Shown here one piece after another: positions 18,681 through 48,122 of a DNA stretch of 64,000 nt (position 1 is its first letter; each line of letters starts with the position of its first letter). The stretch lies in the NCBI GenBank assembly GCA_044892505.1, contig CM097882.1:244528001-244592000 (forward strand), written 5' to 3'. The stretch is from Schmidtea nova. Taxonomy: Eukaryota. The translations under genes were made by a program, and so were the position numbers. The notes below the pieces were generated by a model. It saw nothing but the letters and a program-made list of their open reading frames with translations. It was not told where the DNA came from and did no database searches.

Positions 18681-19392
18681 TCTTACATGTTAAGTCTTAT
18701 TTTTAGGATAGGTCTTATTATGTGGGAAATACGGTACTAGTTTAGTGTTTGTTATAAGGCTAATAATATTCACTGATTCTTTTGGTGGTGATACACCTGG
18801 TCTCAAGCAATAAACGTAACTATGATACAAGTATGTGTGCACACCTACTTGTTACTCATAGTTACTTTGTTGAAATTATTAATTTTTTCATTTAGCATTT
18901 TTTTTAAATGGCCATCAGGTAAGTTTTTATTAAGATATCTTTTAATGCTTCTATTTTGATATTACAATGATATAAGATCACTATAAAAGCTTTGAAAGTT
19001 TATCTATATGCTGGTGTGTTGGTTAGATTGACAACTGAGATCCTTATGATTTTATACGTTAGGGTGATCTCGCCAACATAAAAACATTCCCCCGCTGACA
19101 CCCATGATGTATCCCTAACTACTCATCATGTTGGTGCTGTGTCAACGTTGTGAAATGACAAGGCAGGTGAGCAACCTTGCGGCTACTATTCCCTTGTTTA
19201 TTCACGGGTCCACCACTACCGTTAGAAGGTGTCTGTGGCTTTCTTTCGGTCCCACTTATGCTCTTTTCTTTTGTCCTAGGGTAATTTACATTTTAGATAT
19301 CTGCAGCTTTAAATGAACCAGGTTTTCATTACCTTTAATTCTCATACATACTTCAACAAACAAGACAAATCAAATCATTCATTTATATACAT

Positions 19393-19940
19393 TTATTTGT
19401 AGTTCAACAATACAGAGGGTCGGATTACGTTTAGTAGCTCTTGCTCAGATAGGCCACTGAGCAAGTCTACTTCGATCCCAAGGCTATCTGCGTATGCTCG
19501 TCTTTCCCTACGCTTTTTCGCTCCCAAGCGATTCCGTCTCTTTGTTCGTTTCGAGCCCTCCAGAATTATTGGGGATGTTGTGGTAGTTGTGATTGGGATG
19601 GTTTCTATTTCCGTTTGGGTACTTGTTGTCGTAGATATTGTGTCTACCCACCGATTAATGGTGCTAGCCCGGATCACTGGGCGTAATTGCTCGGTGATGC
19701 CCTCAAGTAATTCGCCAGCTCCATCTTTAGGGCTGCAATCTCTCTGGCATGTTCCTCAGCTACTCGTTCTGCCCTGTATCTAGCCTGCAGGATGGACTTA
19801 ACCTGCTCTGGGTTAAACCATGTAGTCTTAATTCGCTGGTGCTCGTCGTTGAGCTGTCTCAAGCGGTTTTCTAGGACTCGCGATCGTGCTTTATGTTCTT
19901 TGGCCTCTTGTTTGTGGTTCTTAGTTGAATGTTCGCTCAT
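19393..19940 (-). pseudogene. 3' LTR copy of the 187-aa Arg-rich ORF, frameshifted by the 16-bp deletion
   Basis: Split into ORFs 19674-20021 and 19393-19677, versus a continuous ORF in the 5' LTR. Confidence 0.8.
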
Positions 19941-20129
19941 TTCTGAAAAATGTATCATTAATCGGGTTATGTATGGTTTGTCTGTTCTCTCAGTCACTTT
20001 ATTATTAAACAGGTGTTTCACTTTTAGACCACTTCATGCTCACAAAGTCATAACAAAACCCAAAAATTGAATACATTTATTTTTTAACACACATATCCTC
20101 GTTCTTCGAATGATCGACTTCCTTGCGAT

Positions 20130-20765
20130 TTAGAGGAAGGGTCTTAATTCCTGATCGCTGGTATTCTCGTCGCGACGGATTCCATTCTCCCAATACATTT
20201 CTGGGGCTGGGTTCCAACTCAGCTTGTCTTTGTAGATAAACACCTCCCAGAGGCGAAGCTCCTTGGGCTCGGGGTGTTGTTCCACGGAAACACTTCCTGG
20301 CGCATTGGAATAAGCGAAGACTTCCTCAGTGTAGCGACACCGAGGCCTGTCTAGCAGCGTGTATCCGAGTTTGTGTAGCTCTTTTCCGGTCATCGTTCCG
20401 GTACTTAGCAGCCAGCGGGGTTGCTGTAACTCATCGCAGAATTGATAGAACCATCGGGGGTTCTCCGGCTTACTATGATCCGAGGAGAGTACCCAATCAG
20501 TATCCCCTTCCCACCGCAGCTGTAGTCCAAACGCGCAAGCTGGGGTGTTAGCCGCTAAGCTCATATGGGCCCTCATCCACCGTCGTAGGTGGCGACGTGA
20601 TATTTCTGTCACCTTTCGAGGTGCTTCGTTTTCTCCTCTGACGTTTATGATCGTATTGTGTCGGATGACGGAGCGGGTGCGCCGTTTCTTACGAAGGATG
20701 GTTTCCTCTAGCTTTATCGGGTGCGCGATCATCGACTTCCTTTGGAGATTCTCTAGTTTCACCAT
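20130..20765 (-). CDS. LTR-encoded 211-aa protein (3' LTR copy)
   Basis: Identical translation to 46123-46758; basic RKKRR motif. Confidence 0.65.
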   Translation of the reverse strand: MVKLENLQRKSMIAHPIKLEETILRKKRRTRSVIRHNTIINVRGENEAPRKVTEISRRHLRRWMRAHMSLAANTPACAFGLQLRWEGDTDWVLSSDHSKPENPRWFYQFCDELQQPRWLLSTGTMTGKELHKLGYTLLDRPRCRYTEEVFAYSNAPGSVSVEQHPEPKELRLWEVFIYKDKLSWNPAPEMYWENGIRRDENTSDQELRPFL

Positions 20766-22124
20766 AGTATTTCTAAAGAAAATGGTTGTTTGTTAACTAT
20801 GGATTCTATGGTATAACGGGCCTATTTATATCAGTCAACCCACCCGTTATACTTAATTTTCAACACTCATGTTCAACCACTCAGCTTTAACAGTTTTTAT
20901 TGATCGATAATACTATTTAATCACATTCAATCTCATCAGTCGTTTTCGATTAGTTCCTCATTTAACTAGTAATGATCATGCCATGTCGGGTAATTCTCGT
21001 AAGTTCCTGTGGTCATTGTACACTGGGGTTCATCATTTTATCGGTCCTCAATGCCTGTAATTTGTTTATCATCTCTCCTGGCGACTAAACATAGCTGACA
21101 GAGGTTATCGATTATCCTTAACCATTGATACTAGGTTCACTATGCCCGAACTCGTACGCGCTAAGGTTGACATATACCTACCCTCGTCGTTACCTAATTC
21201 ATAGGCACTAATATTATTCACTACACGTATATCCCTCGTCTAGACCTCGCCACGATATATATCTTTCCCATACCACGGGTTTCTCGTTACGCTCGTTTAC
21301 GACTACTAGTTTATGCTCGATACCCTATCATCGTGATGTATATCGTTTATATTAGATCATCGCTACCTTGATTTCGTTCACAATCATTAGGTCTTACTCG
21401 ATACCCTATGTGCATCCCCTTTTTTCCCCCCACCAAGTATTTAATAAACTTATGGTCCCGCCGCATCAGCACCTCACAACCGAAAGATTGTGTTGCGCTG
21501 AGAGGCCCCAAGAATCCGTCAGGCTGTTAGGCCTCCGGAAAACCTTATTGATTTTAATATGGTTAACAATTATGAGGGTTTATATGAATGATACAAAACA
21601 TAACTCAACCATACCTTTTATTTCCAACTGGTTTCCAATACAAGGTTGTTACAAGTTATCAGTTACAACTTGCACTCGGTAAAAATGACATTACCAAATA
21701 CTGATTTGACTTCAGTATTTATACTCAACCGGTGTTGTTGGTTAGCCAATCAGCATCGAGTATGTGTGTATGTTTGATTCATTATTTTGTGTTGCCGGCT
21801 TTTTGGTGCCTAACTCAACTCAATGATTTATTTGGTTAATCATGCGGTAAGTTTTTCTTAGTCATCAATTTATTTTATTTTATTTTTGTTTTAGGTCTTT
21901 GGTGACATCCGCCCACGCGCTGTCATATTCCAATTTTATCTGCTTCGCATGAGTGAGTTTTGAAGATTTTTGTTGTTTTGATTAATATTTTATTTCTTTT
22001 AGATGTTGCCGCCTATTTTGTTACGCTTTGGTGTTGGTAATTTATTTTGTTGTTATTCTGTATTTAATTTATTTTATTGATTGTACATTATTTTCAGATG
22101 CTGCTCGATTTGGCTGGCCCAACA

Positions 22125-22327: not shown

Positions 22328-22843
22328 TCAGGTCCTTTCACTGGTTGACTGCATTTCGTATCGGGCTTGGATTTGTCGTAGATGACTTCTCATCCTTTGT
22401 TGGGTTTTTGCTTCACATCTACACATTATCGTTTGTTGTTGTTTGAGGCTTCTGATTCGATATAGGGTATTCGTAATCACGATGATCAGGATGATTGTCA
22501 GTATTGTCATTGTGACTATTCCCACGATGATCCATCTGTTTCGGATTTCGGATTCGATTTGGGTTTGACCTTTGATTGGCTTTAGGTGATCTTGAAATGT
22601 TCTATGGATTTCTCGGATCTTCTCGATTTGATTGAATAGGGTTTGTAAGGGTTTGCGATGATCATGACTGATTCGCATTTGTCGTATTAATTGTTTCAAG
22701 TCTTCTCTGACTTCATTTAGTTGTTTTTCGATCTCCTGGGATATTTCATTTGACAGGGTTCTTTGAATTTCGGTTGTCGAATAGTTCATGATGGTTACTG
22801 TTAACATAATCGTTAGGATGGGTAGGGTTTTGAGCCAGATCAT
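22328..22843 (-). CDS. 171-aa membrane protein: N-terminal hydrophobic segment, coiled coil, TM helix
   Basis: LPILTIMLTVTIM; heptad-rich middle; WIIVGIVTMTILTIILIIVI. Confidence 0.75.
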   Translation of the reverse strand: MIWLKTLPILTIMLTVTIMNYSTTEIQRTLSNEISQEIEKQLNEVREDLKQLIRQMRISHDHRKPLQTLFNQIEKIREIHRTFQDHLKPIKGQTQIESEIRNRWIIVGIVTMTILTIILIIVITNTLYRIRSLKQQQTIMCRCEAKTQQRMRSHLRQIQARYEMQSTSERT

Positions 22844-22916
22844 TTCTGTTTATTCTACTGATTAATACCTGTTACATCGATTTGTACATTTTTACACACG
22901 GATTTTTCGCCTCTTT

Positions 22917-24077
22917 TTACACATCCGTCTCTTCTGGTTCATGGAACCCTTCGTCTTGGAGCTCCATTGGTGGTGGTGGTATAAACGGTAACCACACCAC
23001 TCTACTTCTCCACATTGCGATTTCGTCTTGATACGTTCGGGAGATTTGTATCTCTTCATCTAACAGATACTCCATATAGTCTGATTGTTCGCTCAGAGTT
23101 TCGATTTGTCTTTCCATCTCTTCCACTTTTCTCTTCAGTGTTTCTACTTCTGTTGGTTCGGTTTCTATTTCTGGGGTTTCTTTCTCTGCTTTCAGGGTTA
23201 TTATTTGTTGTTTCAGCTCCTCGTTTTCTTTCGTCAAGTTCGTTATATTTTCCTCGTAAGCTCGGTTTGATTCCGCATGCCTTTCTTTCACTGCTTTCAA
23301 CTCCATTTTCTTTTGAGTCACTACTCCTTGGTAACCATTTACATCTCTTTCCAGACTTTCTTTTTCCCTGATCAACTTTTGTCTTTCCGCTTCCTCTTTT
23401 TGTCTAATGCCTCGCATTTCTCCATTTATCATCTGTATTTGCCATTGCGTTTTCTTTAGTTCCTTTGCCTGTTCTCGAATAAATCGCTGTCGTTTTCGAC
23501 TCCATTCTTTGTTTGCTTGTTCTTGTCGTTTTCTCTGTTCTAATTCCTCTTTTAATTCGTCTATCTCTTGATACAGTTTCCAATCTTCGCTGTATGCTGT
23601 CTTTCTGATTATCTCTTTGGCCTCTTTATACACTCGTTTCGACTCCATTTTCCAATGTCTCGCTTGAGCCTTGATTGCTAGTATTTTTTCCTCCATCTTT
23701 TCCTCTTGTTTCTCCCTCTCTTCTCTTCGCGTTTTCATCATATTTTTATAATGTTCTGCTTGTTTCCTCATCAACTGATAGGTTTCCTCTATCTTCTGCC
23801 GACTTCGTACATTCGTTCCTTTTAGCTTCTCTATTTGGGCTGTCAGTTGTACTATCTCTTTATTCACTTCCTCGAGTTCTAGTTGATATAACTCCATTCG
23901 TCGTTCGCATTCTAGTTTCTCGTAGAAATTGTTTGTCATCACTTCGTGTAATTCTCTGGTTCTTTGTTCCACTTCCATTTTACATCTCCTTTCGATTTCT
24001 CTTTCTATTGTTTCTTGTTCGTTCAACATCTCGCTTCTCGTTTCATCTTCGATTACATGTTCATTTGCGTTTTCCAT
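22917..24077 (-). CDS. 386-aa long coiled-coil protein
   Basis: E/K/R/Q-rich heptad pattern throughout; element-like codon usage; proline run near the C-terminus. Confidence 0.8.
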   Translation of the reverse strand: MENANEHVIEDETRSEMLNEQETIEREIERRCKMEVEQRTRELHEVMTNNFYEKLECERRMELYQLELEEVNKEIVQLTAQIEKLKGTNVRSRQKIEETYQLMRKQAEHYKNMMKTRREEREKQEEKMEEKILAIKAQARHWKMESKRVYKEAKEIIRKTAYSEDWKLYQEIDELKEELEQRKRQEQANKEWSRKRQRFIREQAKELKKTQWQIQMINGEMRGIRQKEEAERQKLIREKESLERDVNGYQGVVTQKKMELKAVKERHAESNRAYEENITNLTKENEELKQQIITLKAEKETPEIETEPTEVETLKRKVEEMERQIETLSEQSDYMEYLLDEEIQISRTYQDEIAMWRSRVVWLPFIPPPPMELQDEGFHEPEETDV

Positions 24078-24166
24078 TCTGTAATTTACAAATTTACACT
24101 TGTTATACTACACGTTTATTGTTGTTGTCGATTTTTACACTTTATTTACAGGGTCGTTCATTCTGA

Positions 24167-25579
24167 CTACTCTAACCATCCTTTCGTTGACTTCGTGTTC
24201 ATCACTGTTGTACTTGCTTTCCTTTCGATCTCCAACTCTACATATAAGTTGTCATCGTACAACATTTCCCACATTGTTTGGTGTGGTATGAATTTTGGTT
24301 CTCCAGTCGCTAATGAACATTCTGTGGTTGGTCTTTTGTAAGCTTCGTGCTTACTATCAATTTTGAATACTCTCGCTATTGTTTCTTTCGAGTTTCTCAC
24401 TCTCATTATAGCCTTTGTTTCTAGTGGCCATTCTAATATGTCGTCGTAACCACCTTTACACAACGCAAAGAATAATGACACATGCGTTTCCTTTCCTGAT
24501 CCATCTCCATTTGGATAAATTCTCATCCGGACTTTGTATCCATTTTTCCACAGATAGAATGGTGGACTTGTTACCGACACTTGACTTCCTGCTTTTGCTG
24601 CTGCGAACTTTTCGTTGAACTTCTTGATTTTCCATACATATGGTGCGACCGGTAAACTCTCGATATCCTCTGCATCTCGCACCCACATTTGGTGTCGTAC
24701 ATTTACTTCCTTTACTAGCGTCTCTATGACTTTGATTTTCTCCATCATTTTCTCTCTGGTGAGCTCGAATTGTTCTCTTGTTTCCAGTAATAACTCCGTC
24801 ATTATCCTCTGAGATTCGATTTCTTTTTCCAGCTTCTGTATGGTTTGTTCCATTCCGTTTAAATTTTCTGTTAGCATCTCTGCGTGTTGTACCGTCTCTG
24901 TTTCTAAATGCTCTTTCATTTCTTTGCTCGTTTTCTTTACTAGACATCCTTGTTTACTCCATACGCACTTCCTTGGTCTTGATTCGCACCGTTCCCAATG
25001 TTCTCTCACCATCACTTCTTCTCCGGTTCCGCAATTACTTGGACAAATTCCTCGGAATTTTCCGCACACTTTCTCTTCTGCTACGTTGAGATGTTCTGTT
25101 TCGATTACTTCTCTCGTCTCTCTTTGTTTGCAGTATTGACACTCTACTATCTCTGCTTTGCACTCATCCTTGTGCTTTTTTGACTGCTTGATGGTTATCG
25201 TCTGTTGACACTTTTCACATATCGCTTTCTTGTTTTCACATTTCCCCAGATGCTGTCTTAGCTCGATTATTTGTCCTTTCCATTCACAGGGTTGGTTTAT
25301 ACATTCTGTTTTTATTTTCCAGATCTCCTTTTGTATTGCTTTGTCTGGTTTCGTCTCGTTGATTAGTAGTTTATCGACACACTCTGGACACTTTCTTGTC
25401 TCACTTTCACTGATTATTTGCAATATACACTTGGTGCACATCCTGCATCCACATTCGGTTTGTCTCGGTTTCAACAGTAAATTTCTACACTTTACACACG
25501 TCACATTTACTCCCCATTGTCGATTTTCTCCTCTCAGAATTTCGATTGTTTGGTAATCTGCTTCACTTTCTGCTCTCAT
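24167..25579 (-). CDS. TRAF-family protein: RING, TRAF zinc fingers, coiled coil, MATH domain
   Basis: CVKC..KPRQTECGCRMCTKC..CPEC; PDKAIQKEI..C..CEWKG; YVWKIKKF; SPPFY..GYKVRMRIYPNGDGSGKETHVSLFF..KGGYDDILEWP. Confidence 0.95.
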   Translation of the reverse strand: MRAESEADYQTIEILRGENRQWGVNVTCVKCRNLLLKPRQTECGCRMCTKCILQIISESETRKCPECVDKLLINETKPDKAIQKEIWKIKTECINQPCEWKGQIIELRQHLGKCENKKAICEKCQQTITIKQSKKHKDECKAEIVECQYCKQRETREVIETEHLNVAEEKVCGKFRGICPSNCGTGEEVMVREHWERCESRPRKCVWSKQGCLVKKTSKEMKEHLETETVQHAEMLTENLNGMEQTIQKLEKEIESQRIMTELLLETREQFELTREKMMEKIKVIETLVKEVNVRHQMWVRDAEDIESLPVAPYVWKIKKFNEKFAAAKAGSQVSVTSPPFYLWKNGYKVRMRIYPNGDGSGKETHVSLFFALCKGGYDDILEWPLETKAIMRVRNSKETIARVFKIDSKHEAYKRPTTECSLATGEPKFIPHQTMWEMLYDDNLYVELEIERKASTTVMNTKSTKGWLE

Positions 25580-25668
25580 TCTACAACGATATTTACATCA
25601 ATTTCCCCATATTTTTGATTTTTCTGGTTCTTTATTTACACGTATTTACACAATTTTCCGCTTATTCA

Positions 25669-26019
25669 CTATACATCCTCAGTTGAATCTGGCTCTGGAT
25701 ACACGTCTATCTCATTTACAATCCAGCTCGTCCAACTATCTGGTATCTCTTCCTCTTCATGTCTCGTTAATCGGTCAATTTCCTCTGCTTGCCAGTTGTT
25801 CACTTCATTCAATGTTCGGTTCTCGTTCTGTAATTCGTTTATCTGTAGTTGTTGAATCTCGATTTTGTTCATTGCTTCGAAATTACAGTTGTAACTCTCG
25901 GTTAATAATTGCGTTTTGGCCGTCAACTGGCTCTGTAATTCGTTTATTGTTCTGGCTAGCAGGTCACATTGCACTTTCCATCTTGTCATCGTTGACATCT
26001 CGATATTTTCTTGGTTCAT
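25669..26019 (-). CDS. 116-aa coiled-coil protein
   Basis: Heptad pattern with acidic tail; sits in the tightly packed 3' cassette. Confidence 0.65.
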   Translation of the reverse strand: MNQENIEMSTMTRWKVQCDLLARTINELQSQLTAKTQLLTESYNCNFEAMNKIEIQQLQINELQNENRTLNEVNNWQAEEIDRLTRHEEEEIPDSWTSWIVNEIDVYPEPDSTEDV

Positions 26020-26142: not shown

Positions 26143-29100
26143 CTATACAATCACCACTGGTTTTCCTTCGTACAGTTCTTCGTCCTCGATCTGTACCCAC
26201 ATCTCTTCGTGTTTTGATCGTCTTTTCAGTTCCTCTCGTACTTCTTTTGATAGTTTTATGTTGTAGTTCGTGACCTTTACGTCTGGCCATTTTACTGCTA
26301 TGGTCTTATTTCTCATGCCATATCTCCAACATACTATCATGATCGTTATCAGTGGTATACACGCTATGAATACTCCCATGCTGATTAATCCCATTACTGT
26401 TTTTCCAATGCTCATTCTTGGAGTCTCACTTTGGTTTATCATCACGCCATATTGACCTTTCCATTCTGCTTCCCATTGTTCATATTGTTGTTGTCTCCGT
26501 CTGACTTCTTCGATCACTTTCTCTGGTTCCCATTTTTCTTGTCGATTTGGTATTGTTTCTTCCTTCTCGTTTTGTTCTCTCTTCTGACTCAATTCTCGGA
26601 ATTCTAACTTGCGGGTTCCCCCTTTTATCGTTATGTTCCTTGGCGTGTAATAGGTTTCGCACCTTTCTTGTTGATTTCCTTGTGCGTCTACTTCTTCGAT
26701 TGCACACACTTCGTATTCTGCGTTTGTTTTCAACCTCCTCATTTCTACCTCGATTGTTTCCCTTTTGTCATTTGATGTCTTTTGACAGTTTCGTGGAGAC
26801 TCTCTCATACTGTTTGGCATTAATGTCCAACAGATTTCTAGGACCTTTTTATGGATCTTCCATATTATCAGGGTTGTTGACTCTGGTTCGTTTTCTATTG
26901 TCGTCCTTTCCGTTGTTGCCTGTTGAGTTCTCTGACTGTTGGTTGTCGTGGTCCTTCTTGACTTTCTTTTCCTCTGTCGACTTCTTCCCATTTCAATCGT
27001 TCTCGTTCCGTTAATTTGCTCTGGCGTCTGGTACAGTTTGCACTCCAGGCTTCTTTGTATTATTTCTCTTATTCTTCGGATTACGCAAATTTCGTAGGCT
27101 TGTCCGACTTCGAATCCATTTAGTTGAAACGGGATTCCTCGTTCTCTCGTTCTGCATTGCGGTATTATGTTGTTGGTCGGTATTCCGATGTATTTTCTCC
27201 AACACATCCCAATTGTTCTCCGACCAATGTTTTTTATCTCCACGGTTACTACTTCATTCGCAATCGTTTCTTGATCTTGTTTCTTTCTTTTTGGGAACTC
27301 AATTATCTCCTTTGCTTGGAACACTTTACACTCGCTTGTTCCTGGTCTGTTTCCGTTTGCTGCTTTTTCCATGAGGCATAGTTCACATGTTTTCTCTGTT
27401 TCCATTTCAGTTATCTCGATTTCCTCATTTGTCTCTGCCTCTCGACTTTCTCTTGTTTCGCTGATTCCAATTACTTCATTGTTTCGTCCCCAACATCTTC
27501 CATTCGTTGTTCGTTGATCTTGGATGTTTACTAACGTCATCACGCTGATATCTATGTCCTCCATGATTCTCTTAATGAGGATTAATATTAATGCTACACA
27601 TATCAATTCTGGTTGGAATGTTAATTTGCCCGCTGGATTTTTGGTTATTCTTTCTTTCTCTGTTCGGTTTCTGATTCCCTCTTCTGCTTCGGTTTGATTC
27701 TTCCCTTTCTCTGATTCCACTTCTGTTCTTCTCGTCGTCTCTTTGCTTCTTTTCTCAATCCATTTCTGTATTTTCAGCGCTTCTGTTGCTTTGTATAATT
27801 GACATGCAGTTACTTGAGGTGCTTTTGGTTCTCCTCTCTGCTTTATTGCGCATATTATGTATGACTTTTCCTTCTCCAATCCTTTGATTTGGATGACGTC
27901 TCGCTTCAGATCTGACAATATACACTTCAGCGTATCGTTTTTCTTCAGGTTTTCTTTCCAGCATATTCTTTCATATACTTCATTTCCTCTGATTATTTCC
28001 AGCGTGACGTATTGTTTCTTGGCTTCTCCTTGCCCGATGATTGTTATCAATATCGCAATACACAACATTTCTGGTCTCAAAAGTAGACTTCCTGTTCGTT
28101 TTCCATAGTTCGCATGTTCGTCTTCTGTTCCACTGTTTTCTCGTTCTTCGGCTTCCCCTTTCTTGTCGTTTCTCGTTGGCTTCGGTTCTTCTTGTCTTTC
28201 TTTTTCATTGTCTTCGTTGTTATCTTTGTTGTCTTCTTTCTTGCTGTCACTTTTGTCGTCGAAATCTCTGTAACCACCCCCTGGTCCTTTTGAAATGTCG
28301 TCCTCGACATTAATTTCTTCAATCAATCTTTCATACGCTTGAACCGCGAGTGTGCTAGACTCGAATTCCCGTATTTCCATATCCTTGGATGGTTCTATGT
28401 CTTTTAGTCTACTTTGCTTGATTGTTTCTTTGGCATTTGCCCACTCCTTCACATACTTTCTGAACAAGTCTTTCCATCTTCCTATTCGTTCCTGTTCCTT
28501 TGAGTTGTTCGTAAATTTCAAATCTCTTCTCTTCAAGAATTCTTCTACTATCTCTGGCTTTTTGTGTCTCAATAACGCGCTTCTGATACACCAATTCTGA
28601 TTTTGTTCCATATGGTCATTGATCTTGAACGCTGGTTCCTTGGTGACTGGATTCACCCATGTTAGTAATGCTCTTGTTTTCTCTATGTCGTGTATCATTA
28701 CTGTTAGACTGAAGTTCTTTACGTTATTCGCCAGGTATTCGATATCGTCTTGCTTCTTGATGGACTTTATGAACTTGATCATCTCGAAGTTGTTCCACTG
28801 TATTGCGATGTCTATGATGGAATTATTCTTTCCATTTTTCCCTTCGATTTTTGCTCCTGCTTCGTATAACTCGTTTAGCACTTTGCAGTTCGTCTTCTTC
28901 CTCGCTGCGATTATCATGATTGTGTCTCCGTTATCATCAGCCGTGTTCATGTCTGCTTCGCATTTGACCATCGCTTTCGTTATTTCCAGCACTTCGTTTT
29001 CTTTCTTTCGACGTAATGCCCAGTGTATCGGTAGTCTTCCATCCTTTGATAAAAGGAATGCTACTGGCATTTGGTTCTTGATCGTTTCTATGTCACTCTC

Positions 29101-32100
29101 GTTATAATCCCCTTCTGCATATCTGTGCACTTTCTCTGTAATTGTTCCTAGTATTTCCAACGAATTTTTATTCTCCTTGAATTCCGATAATTTCTCCTGT
29201 GCTTTTGCCACGATTGCGTTTAATCTCTCTTGATAATCGGCTTTTGCATTGAACAACACTGCTTTGCTTCTTATTCGCGTTTGCATCTGTTTCATTCGTT
29301 GGTCTTGATACACTGCTTGTCTGAAGAATTGTCCATACTTCAATGCTTCCACCAGCTCTTTATATCGCTTGCTTATTTCTTTGTGCTGCTTTTGGATGTC
29401 ATAGAAATGTTCGAAGCTCATATCCGGATTCCATTGCTTATCACACCATTTCTTGATTAATCCGAATAGTTCTTTCTTCCTGTCTTCTAACTTGTATTCT
29501 CTTGGGTTTTCACTAACCCGTAGCGTATCTCTCGCTACTAACACTGCAAGGGTTTTTGGATCGTATGTTACTTCTAATAGATGTTTCAGTAACGCATTTT
29601 CTCCCCTTGTGAACACTTCATTACAATCTATGACCCACGAATCTCCTTCTGGTCTTTTCCACTTTAGCAATATTCTCCAGGTTTTACTGTTCTTTACCCC
29701 GATTGCTTGTTTCATGATCGATCCTCTAGTTAGTTCATTGATTTCCCACGTGGCATTTTCCGTAATATACTTTAGTATTCGGTGATTCGCTCTATCAATT
29801 GCATGATTCAAGAACGTTCGTCCTTCTTTATCTTTTGTCAACCAATTCGATCTGGTGTTTCCGAATAGCTTGATTATCTCATCGTTTCTTCCATGAATCG
29901 TCATCATCATAAGTGGAGTAATTCCTTCCCAATTCACTTTGTCAATTTCTCCTCCACCTTCGAGTATCATCTCCACGATCTCTTTCACTTTCTCGTTTCC
30001 GCTGTGCTTGATTGCATTATGTAACGCGGTATTACCGTCTTTGTCTTGTAAATTCAACGTCTGAGGGATCTCCTCTAGCAGCGTCCTTGTTATTGGATGT
30101 GCTGTTCTATCCTTCGCATAGTCCATTACATTCTTTCGAACTTCTGACAGTATATTGAAATCGTGCCACCATTTCCACTCTGGTATAATTTCTCTGGTTT
30201 TCTTTGCCAGTTCTTTGATGTCTATTATCTCCCTTCGGTTGTCTTCTAGACTTGTTTGCGGTTTTTGTTGTACTCGCAACATACTGATTCTCGCCGTCTG
30301 TGATCTTGTCATTACCCGTTTCTCTGGTAATAGAGTTACTGTCTTTGGTATTTTCCTGCATCGACATGCGTTCACGTATATTGGTCTTACCAATGGATTG
30401 TTCACCAATCGTACTCGCACGTTATTTTCATTTACTGTTGTTATTTCATATGGCCCTTTGCCTGGTCGTTGGAGTTTCTTGACCGTACCGGGTATTATCT
30501 CTGGTGTTTCGATTATCACCCAATCTCCAACTTTTAAATCATGTGCTTTCACATTCTTTTTCTGATCATGCAGATCCTTGTAACTCTCTTGATAGAACTT
30601 GATGTTTAGTTCCGCCGTTTTCCAGATTTCTTGCATTCTTTCTTTGAACTTTGTAACGTAATCGTCAACCTCCATGTACTGTGATAATGGTGGTTGGTAT
30701 TCTAAATCGATCGGTAAGTTGCAATCTCTTCCGTACATCAGTTGGAATGGACTTAGCTTTGTTGCCGCATGTATTGACATTCTGTATGCCATTAAACACA
30801 AGTTAATATACTCGTCCCAGTCAGTCTGATGTTTACTGACGTAATTCGACAGCATGCGTATCAATGTCCCATTGAATCTTTCTGTTTGACCGTTCGTTTG
30901 TGGATGGTATGGGGATGTTCGTAATTTCGCAATTCGGAAGTAATTCGTAACTTCGTCTAATATTTCACTCATGAAATTTGTTCCTTGATCCGTTAGGATT
31001 TTCTTTGGTGTTCCGTATCTGCAGCATATCTCTTCCACCAATATTCTCGCGACTGTTTTCGCTTTTTGATCCGGTATTGCGAACGCTTCTGGGAACTTTG
31101 TTAGATAGTCCGTGACTACTAATATGTATTGATTTCCCTTCAAACTTTCCGGCAATGGTCCAACTACATCCATTGCTATCGTTGCCATCGGTTCTGCAGG
31201 TATTGGCATTGGTTTTAGTGGTGTTTTCCACTTCGTTCCGACGTTCTTTCTTGTCGCACAGGTTAAGCAGTTCTTTATCCATTCCTTCACATCATCTTCC
31301 ATGGTTGGCCAAAAATACTTTTGTCTCAATCTCCCGATTGTCTTTTTCACTGACATATGTCCGCCTAATTTTCCGTCATGATATTGAGTCATGATTTCTT
31401 TTCGCCTATTCGCAGGTAAGCACATCAATCTCCGTTCTCCATCCTGTATCAATAACCATCCTTTTTCCATCACGTATCGGTGCTGATATTTCTGCATATG
31501 TTCGCGCAATACTTGGTTCTTGCCGAATATTTCTATTTCCTTTTCTTTCAAATACTGGCTGATCAGTCCCAACTCCTCATCTCCGAGTTGATCTTTCCTT
31601 AATTCGCTGAAATCCAAATCTTCCGCTATTAATGCACATATTTTTAGAGCGTTCAGGTTCACCAATTCTGGAAATATAAACCTCGACATGCAATCCGCAT
31701 TTGCATTTGCTTTTCCTGCTTTAAACTTTATGAACGGCGAGTATTCCTGTAACTGCATCGCCCAACGCATCAATCTACTTGATGATTCTTTATGTTGGCC
31801 TAACCATACCAATGGTTGATGATCCGTCGTGATATATATTTCATGACCCCACAGTAGGTACTTGAAATGCTTGATTGCCAATATTATCGCATAGGCTTCT
31901 CTTTCCGTGACTGAGTAATTCCTTTCATGTTTCCTGAAGGTTCGACTGTAATATCCGATTACTCTCTCTTTGCCTTCTTCATCAAATTGGCCTAGTACTG
32001 CTCCTGCTGCGTATCCACTTGCATCTGTTGCCAACAAAAATGGCTTCTTAAAATCTGGATGGACTAATATTGGCGCTGTAATCAGCTTGTCTCGTAATGT

Positions 32101-35100
32101 CTCAAATGCTGCTTGCTGTTCTGTTCCCCACACAAACGACACGTCTTGTCTTACTAATTCTTGCATTGGCTTTGATATTCCTGCATAGTCCTTGATGAAT
32201 TTTCGATAATATCCACACAATCCCAAAAATTCTTGTATTTGAGTCACTGTCTTTGGTGGTGGACATTCTTTGACTTTTTCGATATTCCTTGGATCTGGTT
32301 CTTTTCCTTTTGCTGATACAATGTGACCTAAAAATGTCACTTTCTCTTTTGCCCAATCGCACTTTGACGGCTTCAATTTCAGTTTCCACTGTCTTAATTT
32401 CACGAACACATTTCTGATGTCTTGTAAGTGATCTTCAAATGTTGCGGAGTAGATCAATAGATCGTCGATATACACCATGCATTGTTTTATGCCATGTGTT
32501 ACGAAATTCATGCATCTCTGGAATGATGCTGGCGCGTTTGTTAACCCAAACGGCATTTTCTTGAATTGGTACAGATCTCGTCCGATTGTAAATGCTGTCT
32601 TTTCTTTATCCTCGTCTTTCATTTTGATCTGCCAATATCCGCTTTTTAAATCTAGTGACGTGAAATAAGCTGCTCCTTGTAACGTCAATAACATTTCGTT
32701 TATATCTGGCAATGGGTACGTATCTCTTTTCGTAACTGCATTCAACCGTCTGTAATCGATACAGAATCTCTGAGTTCCATCCTTCTTTTTTACCATCACC
32801 ACTGGGAATTGCCAGGGTGAGCAACTAGGTTCGATGACCTCTGCATCTAACATTTTTTGTACTTCTTCTTCTGCTACTGCTTTTTGGGCTTCTGCCAATT
32901 TGTATGGTCGTAATGCTATTGGCGTTTCGTCCGTCAACGGTATCGTGTGTAATGTTACATCACATGTTCCCAAATCTAAATCTGATGCTGCAAATATATC
33001 TTTATATTCCATCAACAGTTTCTGTAACTGTTCTTTTTGTCGTTCGTCTAACAACACACTGTCGATTTTCCATGGTAATTCGCCTTTGCCTTTCTCATTC
33101 TTGTCTGGTATTTCGATTTCGGACATTGGTGTCAATTTACCCAATCTCTCATTCTCGTATATTATCTTGTCCTCTTCGTCGAAATTTACCAGATTGATCG
33201 GTATTTCTCCTTCCTGGTTTATCGTAACCAATTCTCTTGCCATTGGTAATTCTTTCTTTGCTTCGAACTTCTTACTTGGTTCGAATATCATATCTCCTTT
33301 TATTGTCGAATCGATCTTGACATAGCACATCATTTCGTGCCTCGCTGGCACTACTATTTGTTCCGCACTTGCCACTTTAACTTTCATTCTGCAGATTTTT
33401 CCTGTCCTATCTTTTAGTTTCATTGCTCCTAGATCAATTACGATTTCCTTGAACAGGTCTGGCATCAGGTCAGTTCCAATAATACATGGTACACTCAGCG
33501 ATGGTATTACAGCGATGTACGTGTTGATCTCTGCACCTCGATGCTTAATTTTTACAAACCATCTTCCGGCTACTTCTACTGTCTCTTGACTGCACGCGAT
33601 TACATGTACATTCGTCTTCTCGATTTCTCCTTGATTTTTCTCTGGTATATAATTAATGTCGATCGCCGAAATATTCGCGCCTGTATCGATCATAGCTTCG
33701 ATTTCTCTTCCATTTATTTCTACGGTTGTTGTTAAAATCGGTCCCATATTTGTGGACATAACCGCTATCGTATGCGTGTCTTTTAACGAGTTTACACTTC
33801 CACCTCGTTTTACTTTGCATCCTTCTGGAATTATCGGGTATATACTTGTCATCGGCATCATCTGCATCATATTCGGCTTCGCTTTGTATATCGGTTCGTT
33901 ATACATTGACTGAGGTGGAGCGCTGTATCTCCAATTCTCAACTGCACTCTTTTCGTTATACTGTGGAATCTGGTTTATATTCGCTTGTCCTCCTCGATCG
34001 TCATCGTCATCATCATCATTGCTTGAGTCATCTTGCGTTCGATATCCTCTCACTCTTTCCCATAATCCTTTCCTTTCTTTCTTTAGTTGTCGCCTTGCTT
34101 GTTCATCTTGCATTATCTTTTTGAATTTCCTTCCGACATCTTCATTTGTTCCTCTCATTTTTGCAAGTATCTTCAACAACCTCTTTATTCGATGTATGTC
34201 TTTTGAGTGTCCGTGTAACACCATCGTTTTCGCAAGGAATGGTAAAAACCCTACTACCATTTTCCAATTCACTTTCTTTTCTCTCTTGTAGATGTCGAAA
34301 CACGCTAACATTTGCGTTATTATCACTCTGACGATTTGTATAATCAATATAACACCCAGTATTCCAGCCATCATTTGTCCAAAGATCAGGAATCTTCCCC
34401 ACATTGCCTTCATCATATTTTCCGTAGCTTTTTTGAAATGTGCCGGTGACAACAGCAGTTCGTAATTCGGTCCTTCTCGATAATCCGTTCCTCCCGTTAT
34501 CGTTACGATATTTGACAGTAATGCTTCTCTTCTTGCCGGGAATAATATATTCTGCCTTGCTGCTTCTAAATCCTTTGGACTATAGATTCCGTTGTTTGAG
34601 ACATCTACGTCACTGAACTGTCTATCCTTTGACAACTGCATTAGCTCAAATTCTCTTGGTGCTAATACTTCAGTTCTTCCTGGGAACATAACCCATTTGC
34701 CATCTGGCTTCTGATAAAGCGGTCCGTACGCGTTACTACAGTTGAATGGATTTGGTTCAAACCCTGGTGGATTGATGATTCTCGTCACCGGTTGAACGTA
34801 TCGTACTTTTCCTTTATAATCGATTTCTAGTTCGTTTGTACATTGTCCAGGTTTCAACTGCGTTGTTGCTGCTAGCGATGCGTGTGTCTTTTCGCAAATG
34901 TATACGTACATTGCTTCTCCGACCACTCTTCCGAAATGTCCTTCTCTCAGTGGTAATAATGGCATCGCGCTATCTGGATTCGTAATCGCTACGGCCAACT
35001 TTGTCTTTAATATTTCCCGATTCAGTATGCAATCGTTATTTATCAGATCATAGTACACTTTTTGCAATGAGGCTTGTCCTCTATGGAATAAGAAATCCAT

Positions 35101-38100
35101 TTTATTATTCACATACAAGTGTAGCTTGATATCCATTGTGTCGATCTTGGGTTTCGCATTCGGCACTTCTTGTTTTGACACGTATATTCCTGGATAGTTT
35201 GTTTCGTATACTGTGGTACTGCACTTAAGGGTTGCTTTCCCTTTTATGAATCTCATGCCCACATCCTGATTTGTGGTTATCAACACTGTAGGTGTGGTTC
35301 TCATCTCTATCCGTTTTTCTCTATGATCTGGCTTCAATTGTCTTTTATTCTCTAACGCTTCTTTGAGATGTTTTGCTCTAGCTTTGTCATCATCGTCTTC
35401 TTCTTGGAATGTTTTCCCTTGAATTTCGTCGAACTTTGCTCCTTGTAGCAGTTGTAATTGACATTCGTTCACTTTTGGTTTATACACCAATGTTGACATT
35501 CCCGTTTGACACATGCTTCTGTCAATTTTACACATGGATAACGTTTTCATTTCTCCTGTTGTTGGTTCGAAGAATGCTTCGTAGCTTTTCAGTTCGACTA
35601 TATACGTATCCATTACCACTAGGTTGGTTGCAGGTACTCCAAATATCGGATAGGTTTCTCCTTGACAATACCCTTCTCCTCCCGTAATTCGTCCTGCTAC
35701 ATAATACGTCTGCTGCAACATCATTCCTGGCTTTCCTTTTATCTTGATTTTATCTCTCGTTGTCACTTCTCCATGCTTGAATAATGCTTCACAGTCTTCT
35801 CCTTGTAACACGATTGGTTCTCTTTCGGTTCCTGGCATGACAATTGCTGAATAATGTCCTCTCCCACAATAGAATGCGAATCTCGTCTTCTGTACCTTGC
35901 ATTCATTCACCATTGTCTTTATTAGTTCTGCCTCTTGATACACGTGATACCATTGTTCCTTTTTGATCTCTTTCAATTCTACTGGAGTTGCATCTTTGCA
36001 CTGCTCCGTACCTCTCAATGAGTACTTTTCTCCCAATTTCATTTGATCACAATCAAATACCTCGAACGTTGTTACACCTTCTGTGCTTAACAACCATACT
36101 AACATCATCATGATTATCGAGTTTAAATTCAACGTCGATCTCCCGTTTCCTTGCATCGTTTGTCTATTCTCCATTTCTCTCAATACTCCTTCGAGTTTCT
36201 TTCTCATAACGTTAGACCCTTCTTTTGTCTGGTTCTCTTTTATGAACTTTTCCCATCCTCCTTTTCTGAGGATATATGGTTCAATTTCCTTCTCGATAAT
36301 CATCGCCGTACTCTTGATATGTCTTCCCATCGGACTTGACTTCGGACTTCCTCGGCTTAGCGTTAGCAAATTGTATATCGTATACGAGATTGCTACTAGA
36401 TATTTGCTATCCGTCTCTGCTCCGTTAAGTAGCCTTTTTACCAACATCGTGGTTCCTTGCCAATCTAGATGATTCGATTTTGTTTTCGCCTTAATCAATT
36501 CTGGCATAATCGGTGCTATTGCATTGTGTAGCATCCTTGCCTTTGTACTAGGTTCGTTTATCCGCCACAAATTCTTTAATTCCGGGTCGATTATCGCTAA
36601 CACATCCATTATCGTTTTGGTGAGCCATTCCTCTCCTTGGCAGACTTGATTCTCCTCCTTGCCTCTGATTTCTGCGATTTTATCTAATTTCTTCAAGCAA
36701 ATCTCCCATTGCTCTTGTCTCCTTTCTTCCCTTGATTTTAGGATTGTTGTTGCTGGATCTGTCTTTGGTCTTCCTCTTGGTCGTTTTTCCATTCCGGTTC
36801 CCGTTTCTACAAATCTCACTGCTCTTCCCGTTTCTTCTGTAACATCTCTTCCTTCGTTCGCTCGCTGTTCTAACCATCTTTCCATTTCTTGAGTAAACTG
36901 GGGTTGTTCTTGCTCGTCTTCCGATTCGTTTACCATTTCTATGACTACCTCCTGTTCCACTCCTTGATCGTCGATTTCTGCTGGTGACGTTATTGGCATC
37001 TCTATTATTCTGTCAAAGATGTTCGCTGTTGGTTTTTGAGTCAACTTCGTTAATTCCTCTATCGCTTCATCACTGTCTGTTAGTATCTCATCTACGTCAT
37101 ACGCTTCTGGCGGTGTTCCCTCTCTGATTTTTACTGGCATTGTCCTTGTTTGTCCCGAACTTGTTCCTGGGGTCATTGTTGACTTCATCGGACTTGGTGT
37201 ACTCATGCTTCCCTTCGCTTTCTTTTCCTCTTTAAACTTCAGTGGTTGACCCACTATCTGTGCCACTGTTAGCGTATTCATTAGATCCAATTGCACTGGT
37301 GTCAGCCAGATTTCCAAACTATTATCCAACGATCGTCCTTGATGTTGCAGGTGGAATGGTAGTTCGTACATCAGTTTCTCTTTAACACTCTTCACTTTTT
37401 CTGTTAGCATCACCCAAAACTCTTCTTTTCTTTGATTCGGATACATTATCCTCAAATGTATTTTCTGTGGCGTTTCCTCCGCAAACTCTTTGTTTCTCCA
37501 CTTTTTTATTACGTCGTCTAGTTGCTCTGGACACCACTCGTTAACTCTCTTGTATTCTGCTATCGCCTTAGCTACTTTTCTCAAGTTCGTTATGTCTTCT
37601 CCATTTGAGATTATGAAACCTGCTAAGCCTTTTATTGTTTGTCTTTTTCCCCGAGTATTTCCTCTCAACCGCTCGATCAATTCACTCGTTTTCTGTTTCT
37701 CCAATTCTGCCCATATTACTGCAGTTTCTGGTCCGTCTAAGTCCGTTGGTAGTAACCTCCTTGTTACCATACATATTCGTTTCGTATTCCGTTCATATCT
37801 GTCTTCTCCTTCCGGATCTTCTTCATACACGCCTCTTTTCACTTTCCAACATTTCTCTTTGTTATCCCATTGTTTCTCTACTGGCGTCAATCGTCGTCTG
37901 TTGAGATCCAATTCTCCCAATATTGTCTCCCATTCTGGCTTCATCTGCCAGTTCCGATAGATTTCTACTATCTGTCTCAGCTTGCGCATAACGTCCTCTT
38001 GTCGTTTCTTTTTCCTTTCCTCATCTCTTGGTGTTGCTCTTGGCACATCATCCATTCTGATGACGTGTATTGTCTGATAATTATCCCATATGCCGATTTT

Positions 38101-41043: not shown

Positions 41044-41917
41044 CCCGATTCCACTATCTTGGAATGCTGTACTAGTTTTCTTTACTTCTAGTTCACCACT
41101 TGTTTCTGAATTCGACTCTTCTTCTTCGCTACTCTCTGTTTCGTTATCTCTTGATTCGCTTCTTGTTCTGTTTTCCCTGACTAGTTCACTGTCTATCGTC
41201 TCTACTTCGTTTTGTACTTCTAGATCTTCTGGGGTTTCTTCTTGATTCTCTTTATTACTCGAATTATCGCTGATCTCTACTTGTTTGTTCTTTTGTTGCT
41301 TAGGCTTGTTACCTGTTCTTGTCCTTTTCGCTGCTTTTCTTTCTGCTTCCGTTAAGATTGGTATTATACCTGATCTTGTTTCTCGTCCCTCAATTTTGTC
41401 TATTCCTCAACTGCTTATATTCTCAACTGCTTTTCTACTCCGCTTTTGCTTTGCTTCTTCTTTGATTTGTTTCTTTTGATTGCTCTGACTGCTAGATTGC
41501 TTTGAATTGCTTGATTGATTTGTTTCCTTAAAACAAATAATCACTTACACGATACGTCCCCGTTATCGTGTTTCTCGTCCCTCTCACGGGTGTAGTCATA
41601 ATTCATGAAGATCCCCATTTTTCAAATTTCCCTTGATTTTAAGTCTATTTAAATTATCTATGCAGTCGCATCAATTATCTATTCTTTATCAAATACACCA
41701 ATTACTTTTCCCCAGTTCCCCAATTACTTTGTCGCTCAGCGCTCTTATTATCCCCTTTACTTTTCTCAGGCTTCTCTGGCTCTGAGTTCAAATTTCCCCT
41801 TATCTGTCGACTACTCTGTTTCTCGACTATTCGCTTTATCTCCTATTCACACTACGTTTACTACTTCATTTCAATTCTCATCTCTACTCACCTTTAATTC
41901 GACTGACATCTCTCGTT

Positions 41918-43967: not shown

Positions 43968-44426
43968 TTACAAGTACACTGTTATTCTTTCGGATACGGT
44001 AAGGTTGCACATAGGACATCGTTCATTTATTTTACAGTCATTACAGAATCGAAAATGCCCACATGGCAACAACATTATCTGTATTTTGTTCATTTCACAG
44101 ATATAACACGTCAGATATTGTCTCGTATGTTCTGTTGTTATTCTTATCCATTCATCGTGTTTTGTTGTTAACTGTTGTTCTAGCCTGTGGCACTCGATAT
44201 TCATCTCAGGGTTGCTTAATCTTTCTCTATACCATTGATATCGTGTTGTTGTATCCACTGTTATCTTATTCTCGCTTATGCTCATCATCATGTCGGCTCT
44301 TTCTGTGTTGTTTGTCGGTTCGTGATATTCTCCTACCTCGAGTCGTCTTAACTTCCTCATTATTGTCTCCACTGTTTCGTTGTTTGTTTCGAAAAACGTT
44401 TGCATTTCTTTTATTTTGTTCTCCAT
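43968..44426 (-). CDS. 152-aa protein with C-terminal IAP-type C3HC4 RING (putative E3 ligase)
   Basis: CYICEMNKIQIMLLPCGHFRFCNDC..CPMCNLTVSERITVYL at the extreme C-terminus; no BIR domain. Confidence 0.9.
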   Translation of the reverse strand: MENKIKEMQTFFETNNETVETIMRKLRRLEVGEYHEPTNNTERADMMMSISENKITVDTTTRYQWYRERLSNPEMNIECHRLEQQLTTKHDEWIRITTEHTRQYLTCYICEMNKIQIMLLPCGHFRFCNDCKINERCPMCNLTVSERITVYL

Positions 44427-44960
44427 CCCCTGAATGAATTATCATTAATTTCTGTCGATTTTTATTTATTATTTATCATTCTTATTCTATGGTAGCCCTA
44501 CTGTTCGCTTTCTGTTGTTCTGTTTTGCGTCACTGCGTGTATATCCCCCCGTGTTCTTGAATGTCGCCCCGACATGATCATTGTTAGTTGCTCACACTCA
44601 TACCATTTTCATACACGCTTTTCAGCATACTTTTACCTTACGTCATGCATACTTTTCATCACTTTTCATACTGTTATTCCACATACTATTCATCATACTT
44701 CATTCGTCCTCATACTTCCATTCCATTATCATTCATACTTTCATTCTCATGCATACTTTCATCACGTTCATCAATCTCATTATTTTACACTCATACTTTT
44801 ATTTATTATTTTTCAACCCGATTTATTCTTGCTTCAGGACCCTCAAACCCTCTGTTATTCTTTACTTTACTTTTCCTCGCTAAATTCACTTTCATCCCGG
44901 TTCATGCGCTCTAAACTGTCCGCAGCTATCGCATTCACTTTTTCACACAAAGATCGATTT

Positions 44961-44979
44961 AATCCCGGCTGAGCCCCCA
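44961..44979 (-). promoter_or_regulatory. Primer-binding site, tRNA-Pro type
   Basis: TGGGGGCTCAGCCGGGATT, 6 nt after the 5' LTR; two mismatches to the MLV Pro PBS TGGGGGCTCGTCCGGGAT. Confidence 0.85.
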
Positions 44980-45369
44980 AATTTATGCTGGTGTGTTGGT
45001 TAGATTGACAACTGAGATCCTTATGATTTTATACGTTAGGGTGATCTCGCCAACATAAAAACATTCCCCCGCTGACACCCATGATGTATCCCTAACTACT
45101 CATCATGTTGGTGCTGTGTCAACGTTGTGAAATGACAAGGCAGGTGAGCAACCTTTCGGCTACTATTCCCTTGTTTATTCACGGGTCCACCACTACCGTT
45201 AGAAGGTGTCTGTGGCTTTCTTTCGGTCCCACTTATGCTCTTTTCTTTTGTCCTAGGGTAATTTACATTTTAGATATCTGCAGCTTTAAATGAACCAGGT
45301 TTTCATTACCTTTAATTCTCATACATACTTCAACAAACAAGACAAATCAAATCATTCATTTATATACAT

Positions 45370-45933
45370 TTATTTGTAGTTCAACAATACAGAGGGTCGG
45401 ATTACGTTTAGTAGCTCTTGCTCAGATAGGCCACTGAGCAAGTCTACTTCGATCCCAAGGCTATCTGCGTATGCTCGTCTTTCCCTACGCTTTTTCGCTC
45501 CCAAGCGATTCCGTCTCTTTGTTCGTTTCGAGCCCTCCAGAATTATTGGGGATGTTGTGGTAGTTGTGATTGGGATGGTTTCTATTTCCGTTTGGGTACT
45601 TGTTGTCGTAGATATTGTGTCTACCCACCGATTAAAGGTGCTAGCCCGGATCACTGGGCGTAATTGCTCGGTGATGAACTCCTTGGTTGATGCCCTCAAG
45701 TAATTCGCCAGCTCCATCTTTAGGGCTGCAATCTCTCTGGCATGTTCCTCAGCTACTCGTTCTGCCCTGTATCTAGCCTGCAGGATGGACTTAACCTGCT
45801 CTGGGTTAAACCATGTAGTCTTAATTCGCTGGTGCTCGTCGTTGAGCTGTCTCAAGCGGTTTTCTAGGACTCGCGATCGTGCTTTATGTTCTTTGGCCTC
45901 TTGTTTGTGGTTCTTAGTTGAATGTTCGCTCAT
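45370..45933 (-). CDS. LTR-encoded 187-aa protein (coiled coil, Thr-rich linker, Arg-rich motif, Leu-rich tail)
   Basis: Start chosen at TTTTTCAG|AAATG rather than the tracked GTG at 46014; KRTKRRNRLGAKKRRERRA; stop overlaps AATAAA. Confidence 0.7.
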   Translation of the reverse strand: MSEHSTKNHKQEAKEHKARSRVLENRLRQLNDEHQRIKTTWFNPEQVKSILQARYRAERVAEEHAREIAALKMELANYLRASTKEFITEQLRPVIRASTFNRWVDTISTTTSTQTEIETIPITTTTTSPIILEGSKRTKRRNRLGAKKRRERRAYADSLGIEVDLLSGLSEQELLNVIRPSVLLNYK

Positions 45934-46122
45934 TTCTGAAAAATGTATCATTAATCGGGTTATGTATGGTTTGTCTGTTCTCTCAGTCACTTTATTATTA
46001 AACAGGTGTTTCACTTTTAGACCACTTCATGCTCACAAAGTCATAACAAAACCCAAAAATTGAATACATTTATTTTTTAACACACATATCCTCGTTCTTC
46101 GAATGATCGACTTCCTTGCGAT

Positions 46123-47674: not shown

Positions 47675-47750
47675 AAAATGACATTACCAAATACTGATTT
47701 GACTTCAGTATTTATACTCAACCGGTGTTGTTGGTTAGCCAATCAGCATC
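47675..47750 (-). promoter_or_regulatory. Candidate LTR core promoter
   Basis: TATAAATA on minus (47709-47716), CCAAT box AGCCAATCAG (47737-47746), Inr-like TCAGT/TCATT downstream. Confidence 0.45.
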
Positions 47751-48122
47751 GAGTATGTGTGTATGTTTGATTCATTATTTTGTGTTGCCGGCTTTTTGGT
47801 GCCTAACTCAACTCAATGATTTATTTGGTTAATCATGCGGTAAGTTTTTCTTAGTCATCAATTTATTTTATTTTATTTTTGTTTTAGGTCTTTGGTGACA
47901 TCCGCCCACGCGCTGTCATATTCCAATTTTATCTGCTTCGCATGAGTGAGTTTTGAAGATTTTTGTTGTTTTGATTAATATTTTATTTCTTTTAGATGTT
48001 GCCGCCTATTTTGTTACGCTTTGGTGTTGGTAATTTATTTTGTTGTTATTCTGTATTTAATTTATTTTATTGATTGTACATTATTTTCAGATGCTGCTCG
48101 ATTTGGCTGGCCCAACATATAT

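Follow-up and report, generated by a model that had tools for sequence, protein, structure and literature searches.

A full-length TRAF gene under purifying selection in a giant Burro-like Gypsy element of planarians

The element and its gene cassette

In the present study, we analysed a 64-kb stretch of planarian DNA (the window), in which a TRAF gene sits on the reverse strand within an LTR element of 29,109 bp (19009-48117). The 5' LTR (44986..48117, reverse strand, TG...CA) has 3,132 bp and the 3' LTR (19009..22124, reverse strand) has 3,116 bp, and the two are 99.4% alike. Since they differ by only three substitutions and one 16-bp indel, with a 4-bp target-site duplication, TATA, at 19005..19008 and 48118-48121, the insertion is young. 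The preliminary description had taken the gene to be carried by a retroelement, and its position between these LTRs bears this out. An 18-mer at 44962..44979 (reverse strand) resembles a primer-binding site, presumably of the tRNA-Pro type; no tRNA gene was found in the 64-kb window. The polyprotein frame, ORF1 (26143..41406, reverse strand), has 5,087 codons from stop to stop and encodes, in this order, a CCHC gag, a Monjiviricetes-type fusion glycoprotein, protease, reverse transcriptase (RT), RNase H, integrase, ankyrin repeats and a C-terminal hydrophobic anchor. Pfam searches at E 0.01 found no MATH, BIR or Bcl-2 domain in the ORF1 of the window. Internal hydrophobic segments resembling signal sequences occur in the ORF1 tail (26143-28200, reverse strand), along with a transmembrane segment, a 58-aa tail and Cys/Trp/Tyr repeat modules that look FN3-like by eye, have no Pfam match and are more numerous in family C, one of the sister families (B-G) of the window's family A.

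A leader ORF of 156 codons (43968..44438, reverse strand) ends in an IAP-type C-terminal RING and has no BIR (PF13920, E 7e-9). The best solved match of this RING is that of cIAP2 (E 2e-7), homologues are present in families B-F, and an IAP-type RING ORF was found in every family whose upstream part was examined. The leader also contains an array of 84-97-bp repeats and a 19-bp tandem array (41650-43280). Two ORFs of about 220 codons within the LTR (45370-46785 and 20130-20792, reverse strand) have weak homologues in the LTRs of sister families and belong to no convincing Pfam family. On the 3' side of ORF1 lies a cassette of four ORFs on the same strand: a 116-aa coiled-coil ORF with no convincing Pfam family (25669..26019, dN/dS 0.07), the TRAF gene, a 386-aa coiled-coil ORF (22917..24077, dN/dS 0.15) and a small ORF with one signal-like and one transmembrane-like hydrophobic segment (22328..22849), which is also found in families C and F. 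The 386-aa protein terminates (22917-22931, reverse strand) in ETDV, which was kept in 43 of 45 ungapped family A copies; ETIV, ETLV, ESLV and ETFV were read in sister families (L119, L149, L190, L180, L141), so that the terminus is E-T/S-x-V in all families read. We take it to be like a class I PDZ-binding motif. One ORF of family D also terminates in ETLV.

Judged by size, copy number, LTRs and ORF1 order, the element is Burro-like, not Burro1 proper. It shares with Burro1/GYPSM1 and the D. tigrina element a giant Gypsy organisation, an ORF1 of about 5,000 aa, env between gag and pol, ankyrins, MATH_TRAF_C and regulators of apoptosis and ubiquitin (PMC6431247). MATH_TRAF_C was described inside ORF1 in the S. 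mediterranea element GYPSM1/Burro1 and in an upstream accessory ORF in the D. tigrina one (PMC6431247, citing Jurka 2007 and Grohme 2018), whereas here, compared by description only, a whole RING-finger-coiled coil-MATH gene belongs to a conserved multi-ORF cassette on the downstream side of ORF1. Elsewhere in the window, an open hAT transposase frame of 860 codons (13175-15757, reverse strand; DUF4371, hAT dimerisation domain) and a broken, 3'-truncated family C copy (1-9063, forward strand; 67-80% amino-acid identity to ORF1) were observed.

The TRAF accessory gene itself (24167-25579, reverse strand) is an unbroken frame of 470 aa plus stop. The RING-zinc finger-coiled coil-MATH architecture given for it previously was recovered alike by the open frame, Pfam, solved relatives and the predicted model. 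An eight-Cys RING (aa 28-67, 25379..25498) is followed by five TRAF-type zinc fingers (aa 93-232, 24884..25303), the third with a triclad-type insertion, by a coiled coil (TRAF-N, aa ~236-304, 24668..24874) and by a MATH/TRAF-C domain (aa 314-452, 24224..24640). The Pfam matches were MATH_2 (aa 314-451, E 8e-27; PF22486 E 8e-27, PF21355 E 7e-26), zf-TRAF (E 9e-5) and TRAF3_RING (aa 28-67, E 2e-4). The closest solved relatives by sequence were TRAF5/3/2 for the MATH domain (E 6e-27) and TRAF6/2 for the RING-zinc finger part. The AlphaFold model has a mean pLDDT of 82.8 and a single helix at 229-304, and TRAF1/3/2 were its best Foldseek matches. By its MATH domain, RING and tandem zinc fingers, the gene would be classed as TRAF2/3/5-like.

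The RING ligands are C28, C31, C43, C45, C48, C51, C64 and C67; the segment ECGCRMC aligns with CGHR(F/Y)C of TRAF2/6, so that Cys takes the place of the His found as fourth ligand in TRAF2 and TRAF6. A further 20 Cys/His positions are conserved across families A-C, 19 of them in common with the vertebrate TRAF2/3 rows, and the start of the RING aligns nearer to TRAF2 than to TRAF6. In vertebrate TRAF2/3 the segments SSSF and ASGC line the receptor-peptide groove of the MATH domain. In the element TRAF they are replaced by HEAY and ATGE, with the R-x-Y-x-N-G-D-G side retained. One side of the groove is unlike that of host TRAFs and varies among families. A trimer of the coiled coil and MATH domain was modelled with a score of 0.73, against 0.01 for the best control; the runs share at least 94% of contacts, with pLDDT of at least 82. 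Of 30 solved pairs, 21 reached the score mark used (eukaryotes, 17 of 29; one of seven without a solved relative), but none of 23 single chains did, and the result for the TRAF may reflect memory of solved TRAF trimers.

The spacers of the cassette suggest how its genes may be expressed. The conserved 89-bp spacer before the TRAF gene (25580..25668, reverse strand) contains TGTAAATA and AATAAA motifs with YAG just before the ATG, as a candidate 3' end signal and splice acceptor. Together, the spacers at 26020-26142, 25580-25668 and 24078-24166 (89-126 bp) hold six of the eight TGTAHATA motifs of the element (shuffle p 0.002-0.016 each); AATAAA is present in two of the three, and YAG stands ahead of each ATG. 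They are conserved within family A and visibly in B and C. Presumably, TGTAAATA and AATAAA could also match Pumilio or forkhead site consensus. Each of the 14 accessory starts inspected has YAG within the 10 bases upstream, versus 39 of 170 internal ORF1 Met codons; the 14 stand for five homologous positions and are not independent of one another. The pattern would suit a 3' end signal with a splice acceptor behind it, and the TRAF would be expressed as its own mRNA by cis- or spliced-leader trans-splicing at the acceptor-like site before its ATG. In Macrostomum operons, spacers near 100 bp are reported to be resolved by spliced-leader trans-splicing (PMC8629364). Four sequence runs (contigs of unrecorded kind) gave cover in 30 of 30 bins; among the joints listed, with 49 more left off the listing, none falls at an accessory start, and the runs speak neither for nor against expression. 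BURRO1 is reported to be transcribed on loss of smedwi-2 (PMC8532177).

Origin and composition of the TRAF gene

The codon usage of the TRAF follows the element. Its purine content is 0.67, versus 0.66 in the polyprotein and 0.51-0.58 in host TRAF frames, and its RSCU correlates at 0.94 with the polyprotein and at 0.55 with host TRAFs, in agreement with the polyprotein-like purine-rich bias first described. At four-fold sites, A and T make up 0.61 and 0.04 in the TRAF, 0.56 and 0.07 in ORF1, and 0.34 and 0.30 in ten host TRAF frames. The share of E+K+R+T is 0.37-0.42 in element TRAFs versus 0.22-0.26 in four host proteins. By these measures the codon use is fully ameliorated to that of the element, and the earlier statement that the gene is ameliorated holds for codon and amino-acid make-up.

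The phylogeny with host TRAFs, which the preliminary description had proposed as a check, places the element TRAFs inside the triclad TRAF radiation. In the full-length tree (20 rows) they fall among triclad TRAFs at 98/96, and in a denser tree (27 rows) the non-triclad TRAFs stand on their own side at 100/100, with the element TRAFs on a long separate branch. A non-triclad origin was marginally rejected by the AU test with full-length sequences (p 0.039) and was not rejected with MATH alone (p 0.109). Triclad host TRAF2/3/5-like proteins (D. japonica TRAF2-like A, Dendrocoelum TRAF-2/-4/-5, L063, L071-L073) share with the element TRAF its architecture, the Cys at the fourth RING ligand and the finger-3 insertion. 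Their identity to it is 26-35%, and their coding region is often a single frame. The element TRAF differs from them in its element-like codon and amino-acid make-up, its long branch and its altered MATH groove, and it is mobile, with hundreds of copies. That the host is a triclad was deduced from one host TRAF, to which the nearest named proteins belong to Dugesia japonica (70%) and Dendrocoelum lacteum (41%).

The replacement of the RING His by Cys had been noted previously as a feature of this gene. The ECGCRMC segment is indeed present, but it is not an innovation of the element: all eight host TRAF RINGs in the alignment have Cys at this ligand, and the Cys was therefore inherited. Among 122 database proteins, the fourth ligand was Cys in nine (two of them echinoderm), His in 102 and Asp in one, with no match in 10; the finger-3 insertion motif was found in eight of the 122, none of them a named non-triclad. 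The gene had also been described as an old capture from a host mRNA. Old age and the host lineage are supported by the trees, while the mRNA donor is not implied: RING and MATH stand in a single open frame at eight of 16 non-element TRAF loci (among L061-L080), and since many host TRAF coding regions are single-frame, the intronless state is no proof of such a donor. RNA-level recombination is the usual capture route for LTR elements. Taken together, the sequences support an old capture of a full-length TRAF from the triclad host lineage.

The host locus L063 was considered as donor, being sister to the element TRAFs at 89/84, and was rejected when denser sampling put P0001 and P0147 in the sister position (99/95). 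Among 93 scored rows, the best host match to P0147 was at 37%, and none was close. The accessory TRAFs and the polyprotein MATH of family D may have a single origin, and were united at 97/83 under LG+G4 (L067, L077 and P0001 left out), with a long-branch warning, and at 67/30 under a mixture model (31 rows). Three database proteins, P0124, P0143 and P0155, group with element TRAFs at 97/97, share their amino-acid bias and are probably element genes of other genomes. An expansion of host planarian TRAFs is known (PMC6109357) and is real in this genome, with a cluster on contig C2. This cluster of TRAF/MATH genes (G000:C2, about 405-455 Mb) is dense and contains tandem duplicates, some single-frame and some split over two frames.

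Captured TRAFs are also known from DNA viruses. Megalocytivirus ORF111L and the giant-virus TRAFs resemble the present gene as host TRAFs on a mobile parasite (structural matches E 7e-20 and weaker). Unlike the element TRAF, ORF111L is reported as a pro-apoptotic protein of 296 aa (RING and TRAF domain) closest to fish TRAFs (PMC3352826); the viral and element TRAFs are independent captures. In the literature searched, no full-length TRAF was found in a retroelement; Jurka 2007, Grohme 2018, the Repbase entry and the figure of PMC6431247 could already show one. The accessible part of PMC11410931 mentions Burro once and TRAF not at all. The MATH/TRAF-C domain of Burro, also as an accessory ORF, is thus already known (2007, 2019), a point absent from the preliminary description, as are the viral TRAFs. 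As far as this literature shows, the full-length gene, its selection, the TRAF-IAP pairing and the splice-acceptor-like spacers are new.

Selection, decay and the sister families

A search with the TRAF gave 90 scored full-length matches among 3,515 candidates; these were 94-100% identical and five had an internal stop. In order to avoid selection of copies by TRAF similarity, copies were anchored on the integrase, which gave 114 matches of at least 95% (family A) and 28 at 91% (family B). Seventy-nine of the 114 had a match from the TRAF search at the expected offset; the other 35 were all read, together with a random 20 of the matched copies. In this census, the TRAF was open and full length in 86 copies (L083, L097 and L102 are open; L095, L104 and L136 are broken) and near full length with a stop or frameshift in 15. 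One copy had a C-terminal deletion, five were partial and seven had no TRAF within the 9.9 kb read.

The dN/dS of the TRAF, from 44 integrase-anchored copies covering the gene, was 0.119 (95% bootstrap 0.092-0.153; NG86 values, which ignore transition bias and have no neutral control). An earlier value of 0.09 from the 30 best protein matches was set aside because their choice was biased. Among the domains, the RING was lowest at 0.06, followed by the coiled coil at 0.09, the MATH at 0.13 and the fingers at 0.135 (44 copies). In comparison with 0.031 for the integrase, 0.093 for the ankyrin region and 0.215 for the polyprotein tail, the constraint on the TRAF is close to that on the ankyrin region, weaker than that on the integrase and stronger than that on the polyprotein tail. 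Its pN/pS was 0.13 for shared variants and 0.30 for singletons, and all 11 nonsense variants were singletons. The TRAF is therefore under purifying selection as an accessory gene of the element. ORF1 was open in 26 of the 114 copies. Scaled to the length of a 1.4-kb gene, this predicts about 87% open frames, and 86 of the 102 near-full-length TRAFs (84%) were open. As the open share is close to this expectation, constraint would act during replication with decay afterwards, and selection appears to work through the lineages that replicate, not through copies once inserted. Neither neutral dN/dS nor frequent disruption, named beforehand as results against retention, was seen.

Retention is also observed across families. 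Six families (A, B, C, E, F and G) carry a TRAF at the same position, the identity for the five sisters being 37-54%. It was in place in five of five copies checked of family B (53% identical) and in seven of seven of family C (52% identical), which has at least 150 integrase matches and an ORF1 of up to about 5,700 codons. Searches with two database proteins brought up families E, F and G, which are 37-49% identical to A. Between A and B or C, dS is above 2 and dN/dS is 0.14-0.17; within families, dN/dS is 0.12-0.27. In the representatives of all six families, 27 of 28 zinc ligands are identical, the exception being one copy. Many ORF1 frames of family B have 5,140 codons, the length given for the D. 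tigrina ORF1 (PMC6431247), which may be a coincidence.

Family E (L179-L182, L193-L194; G000:C1:514766270-514792087) is a high-copy element of about 26 kb with near-identical LTRs. Both copies read have no RT, integrase or env, and their ORF1 is reduced to a protease-ankyrin remnant. Its TRAF gave 91 rows; in all 10 copies checked, the TAG listed for these rows proved to be the terminal stop, and dN/dS was 0.20 in 10 copies. A BIR-RING IAP lies directly behind the TRAF and was stop-free in 106 of 106 rows; its single BIR matches NAIP, survivin and DIAP1 best and is not clearly of the TRAF-binding BIR1 type. A leader RING ORF and further ORFs are also present. One F and one G copy are without RT and integrase and another F copy is without most of ORF1, with the cassette present in all. 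Family D has MATH alone, inside ORF1 as in Burro1, and no downstream TRAF in the one copy read.

Possible role of the TRAF gene

We tentatively propose, at somewhat short of an even chance, that a host-derived TRAF serves the element as a selected accessory gene and as a trimeric adaptor which works with element IAP-type ubiquitin ligases in damping death or stress signalling. The TRAF would form a trimer and bind an IAP-type ligase encoded by the element, and the pair would damp these signals, so that the cell expressing the element survives. The TRAF shares its elements with an IAP-type RING ORF in the window family and with a BIR-RING IAP in family E. In vertebrates, TRAF2 partners cIAP. 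The TRAF2-like RING start, the long coiled coil and the IAP-type proteins on the same elements resemble the vertebrate TRAF2-cIAP1/2 system; a scaffold role fits, as the start of the RING is closer to that of TRAF2 than of TRAF6. RNAi of host planarian TRAFs is reported to increase cell death (PMC7586133), planarian traf2-1 to restrain infection-driven tissue degeneration (PMC4993586), and BIR and BCL2-like motifs to occur in Burro (PMC6431247). Against a survival role, xiap was an activator of degeneration in the same planarian screen (PMC4993586), and the one characterised viral TRAF mentioned above induces apoptosis (PMC3352826). In the window family, the TRAF-IAP link is indirect, because only the BIR-less IAP-type RING is present there and Pfam finds no BIR or Bcl-2 in ORF1. 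The target of the TRAF may have changed, as one groove side differs from hosts and among families, and the RING and fingers would be dispensable in family D, where only MATH is kept, inside the polyprotein. Rewiring of TNFR/Toll signalling, which the preliminary description had thought possible, is conjectural. Searches of the genome for TNFR_c6 and Rel domains gave no match, the controls likewise, and are uninformative. The fuller version of the survival-adaptor proposal is possible, if doubtful: an operon-like cassette with a splice acceptor at each start, possibly for spliced-leader trans-splicing, would encode a complete TRAF-IAP module blocking death, kept by a high-copy family without RT, integrase and env, and element TRAFs would form an unrecognised share of the planarian 'TRAF expansion'.

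The main rival, which we consider rather unlikely, is a decoy against TBK1 or TAK1 signalling (PMC13563047, PMC7958881): the TRAF would occupy receptor or adaptor sites or mix into host TRAF trimers and so block innate sensing (TBK1, RIG-I-like, TAK1-p38/JNK) of element nucleic acids, with no need of an IAP. Planarian TBK1 is reported to limit the expression of foreign nucleic acid and to induce TRAF genes (PMC13563047), and the retention of MATH alone in family D would suit such a decoy. Families A-C are also without a hydrophobic residue before the second RING Cys, which the host proteins L063 and L071-L073 keep. This residue serves E2 binding. A pure decoy, however, could dispense with the RING and the five fingers, whereas no part of the gene has a lower dN/dS than the RING, whose ligands do not vary among the six families. 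The same strong RING constraint, the altered MATH groove and the co-carried RING, ankyrin and PDZ-motif-like proteins would be expected of a ubiquitin ligase or substrate adaptor retargeted to remove a restriction factor or to aid particle assembly, unrelated to receptor signalling. This is unlikely, since the fold remains that of a canonical TRAF and there is no hint of a substrate; a scan of five element proteins or tails found no motif of the PxQxT type.

A benefit to the host, with element copies serving as extra immune or survival TRAF genes, would accord with the hundreds of open copies and with family E, which keeps the TRAF without RT or integrase. It is very unlikely, as inserted copies decay about as neutral loss predicts, all stops are private and no TRAF copy was identified outside an element. 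Nothing was found in favour of a recent or neutral passenger, which is refuted by the full amelioration and by selection: dN/dS is 0.12-0.27 among copies of one family and about 0.15 from one family to another, at dS above 2.

The 2019 review, which proposed that Burro interferes with host apoptosis and ubiquitin systems, left open whether it does so (PMC6431247). The present results supply a specific gene whose constraint has been measured, together with a candidate partner. They also supply a family in which the cassette stands apart from the replication enzymes, and the host animal is amenable to RNAi. Given the grouping of P0124, P0143 and P0155 with element TRAFs, some of the genes counted as planarian TRAFs or targeted by RNAi may belong to elements.
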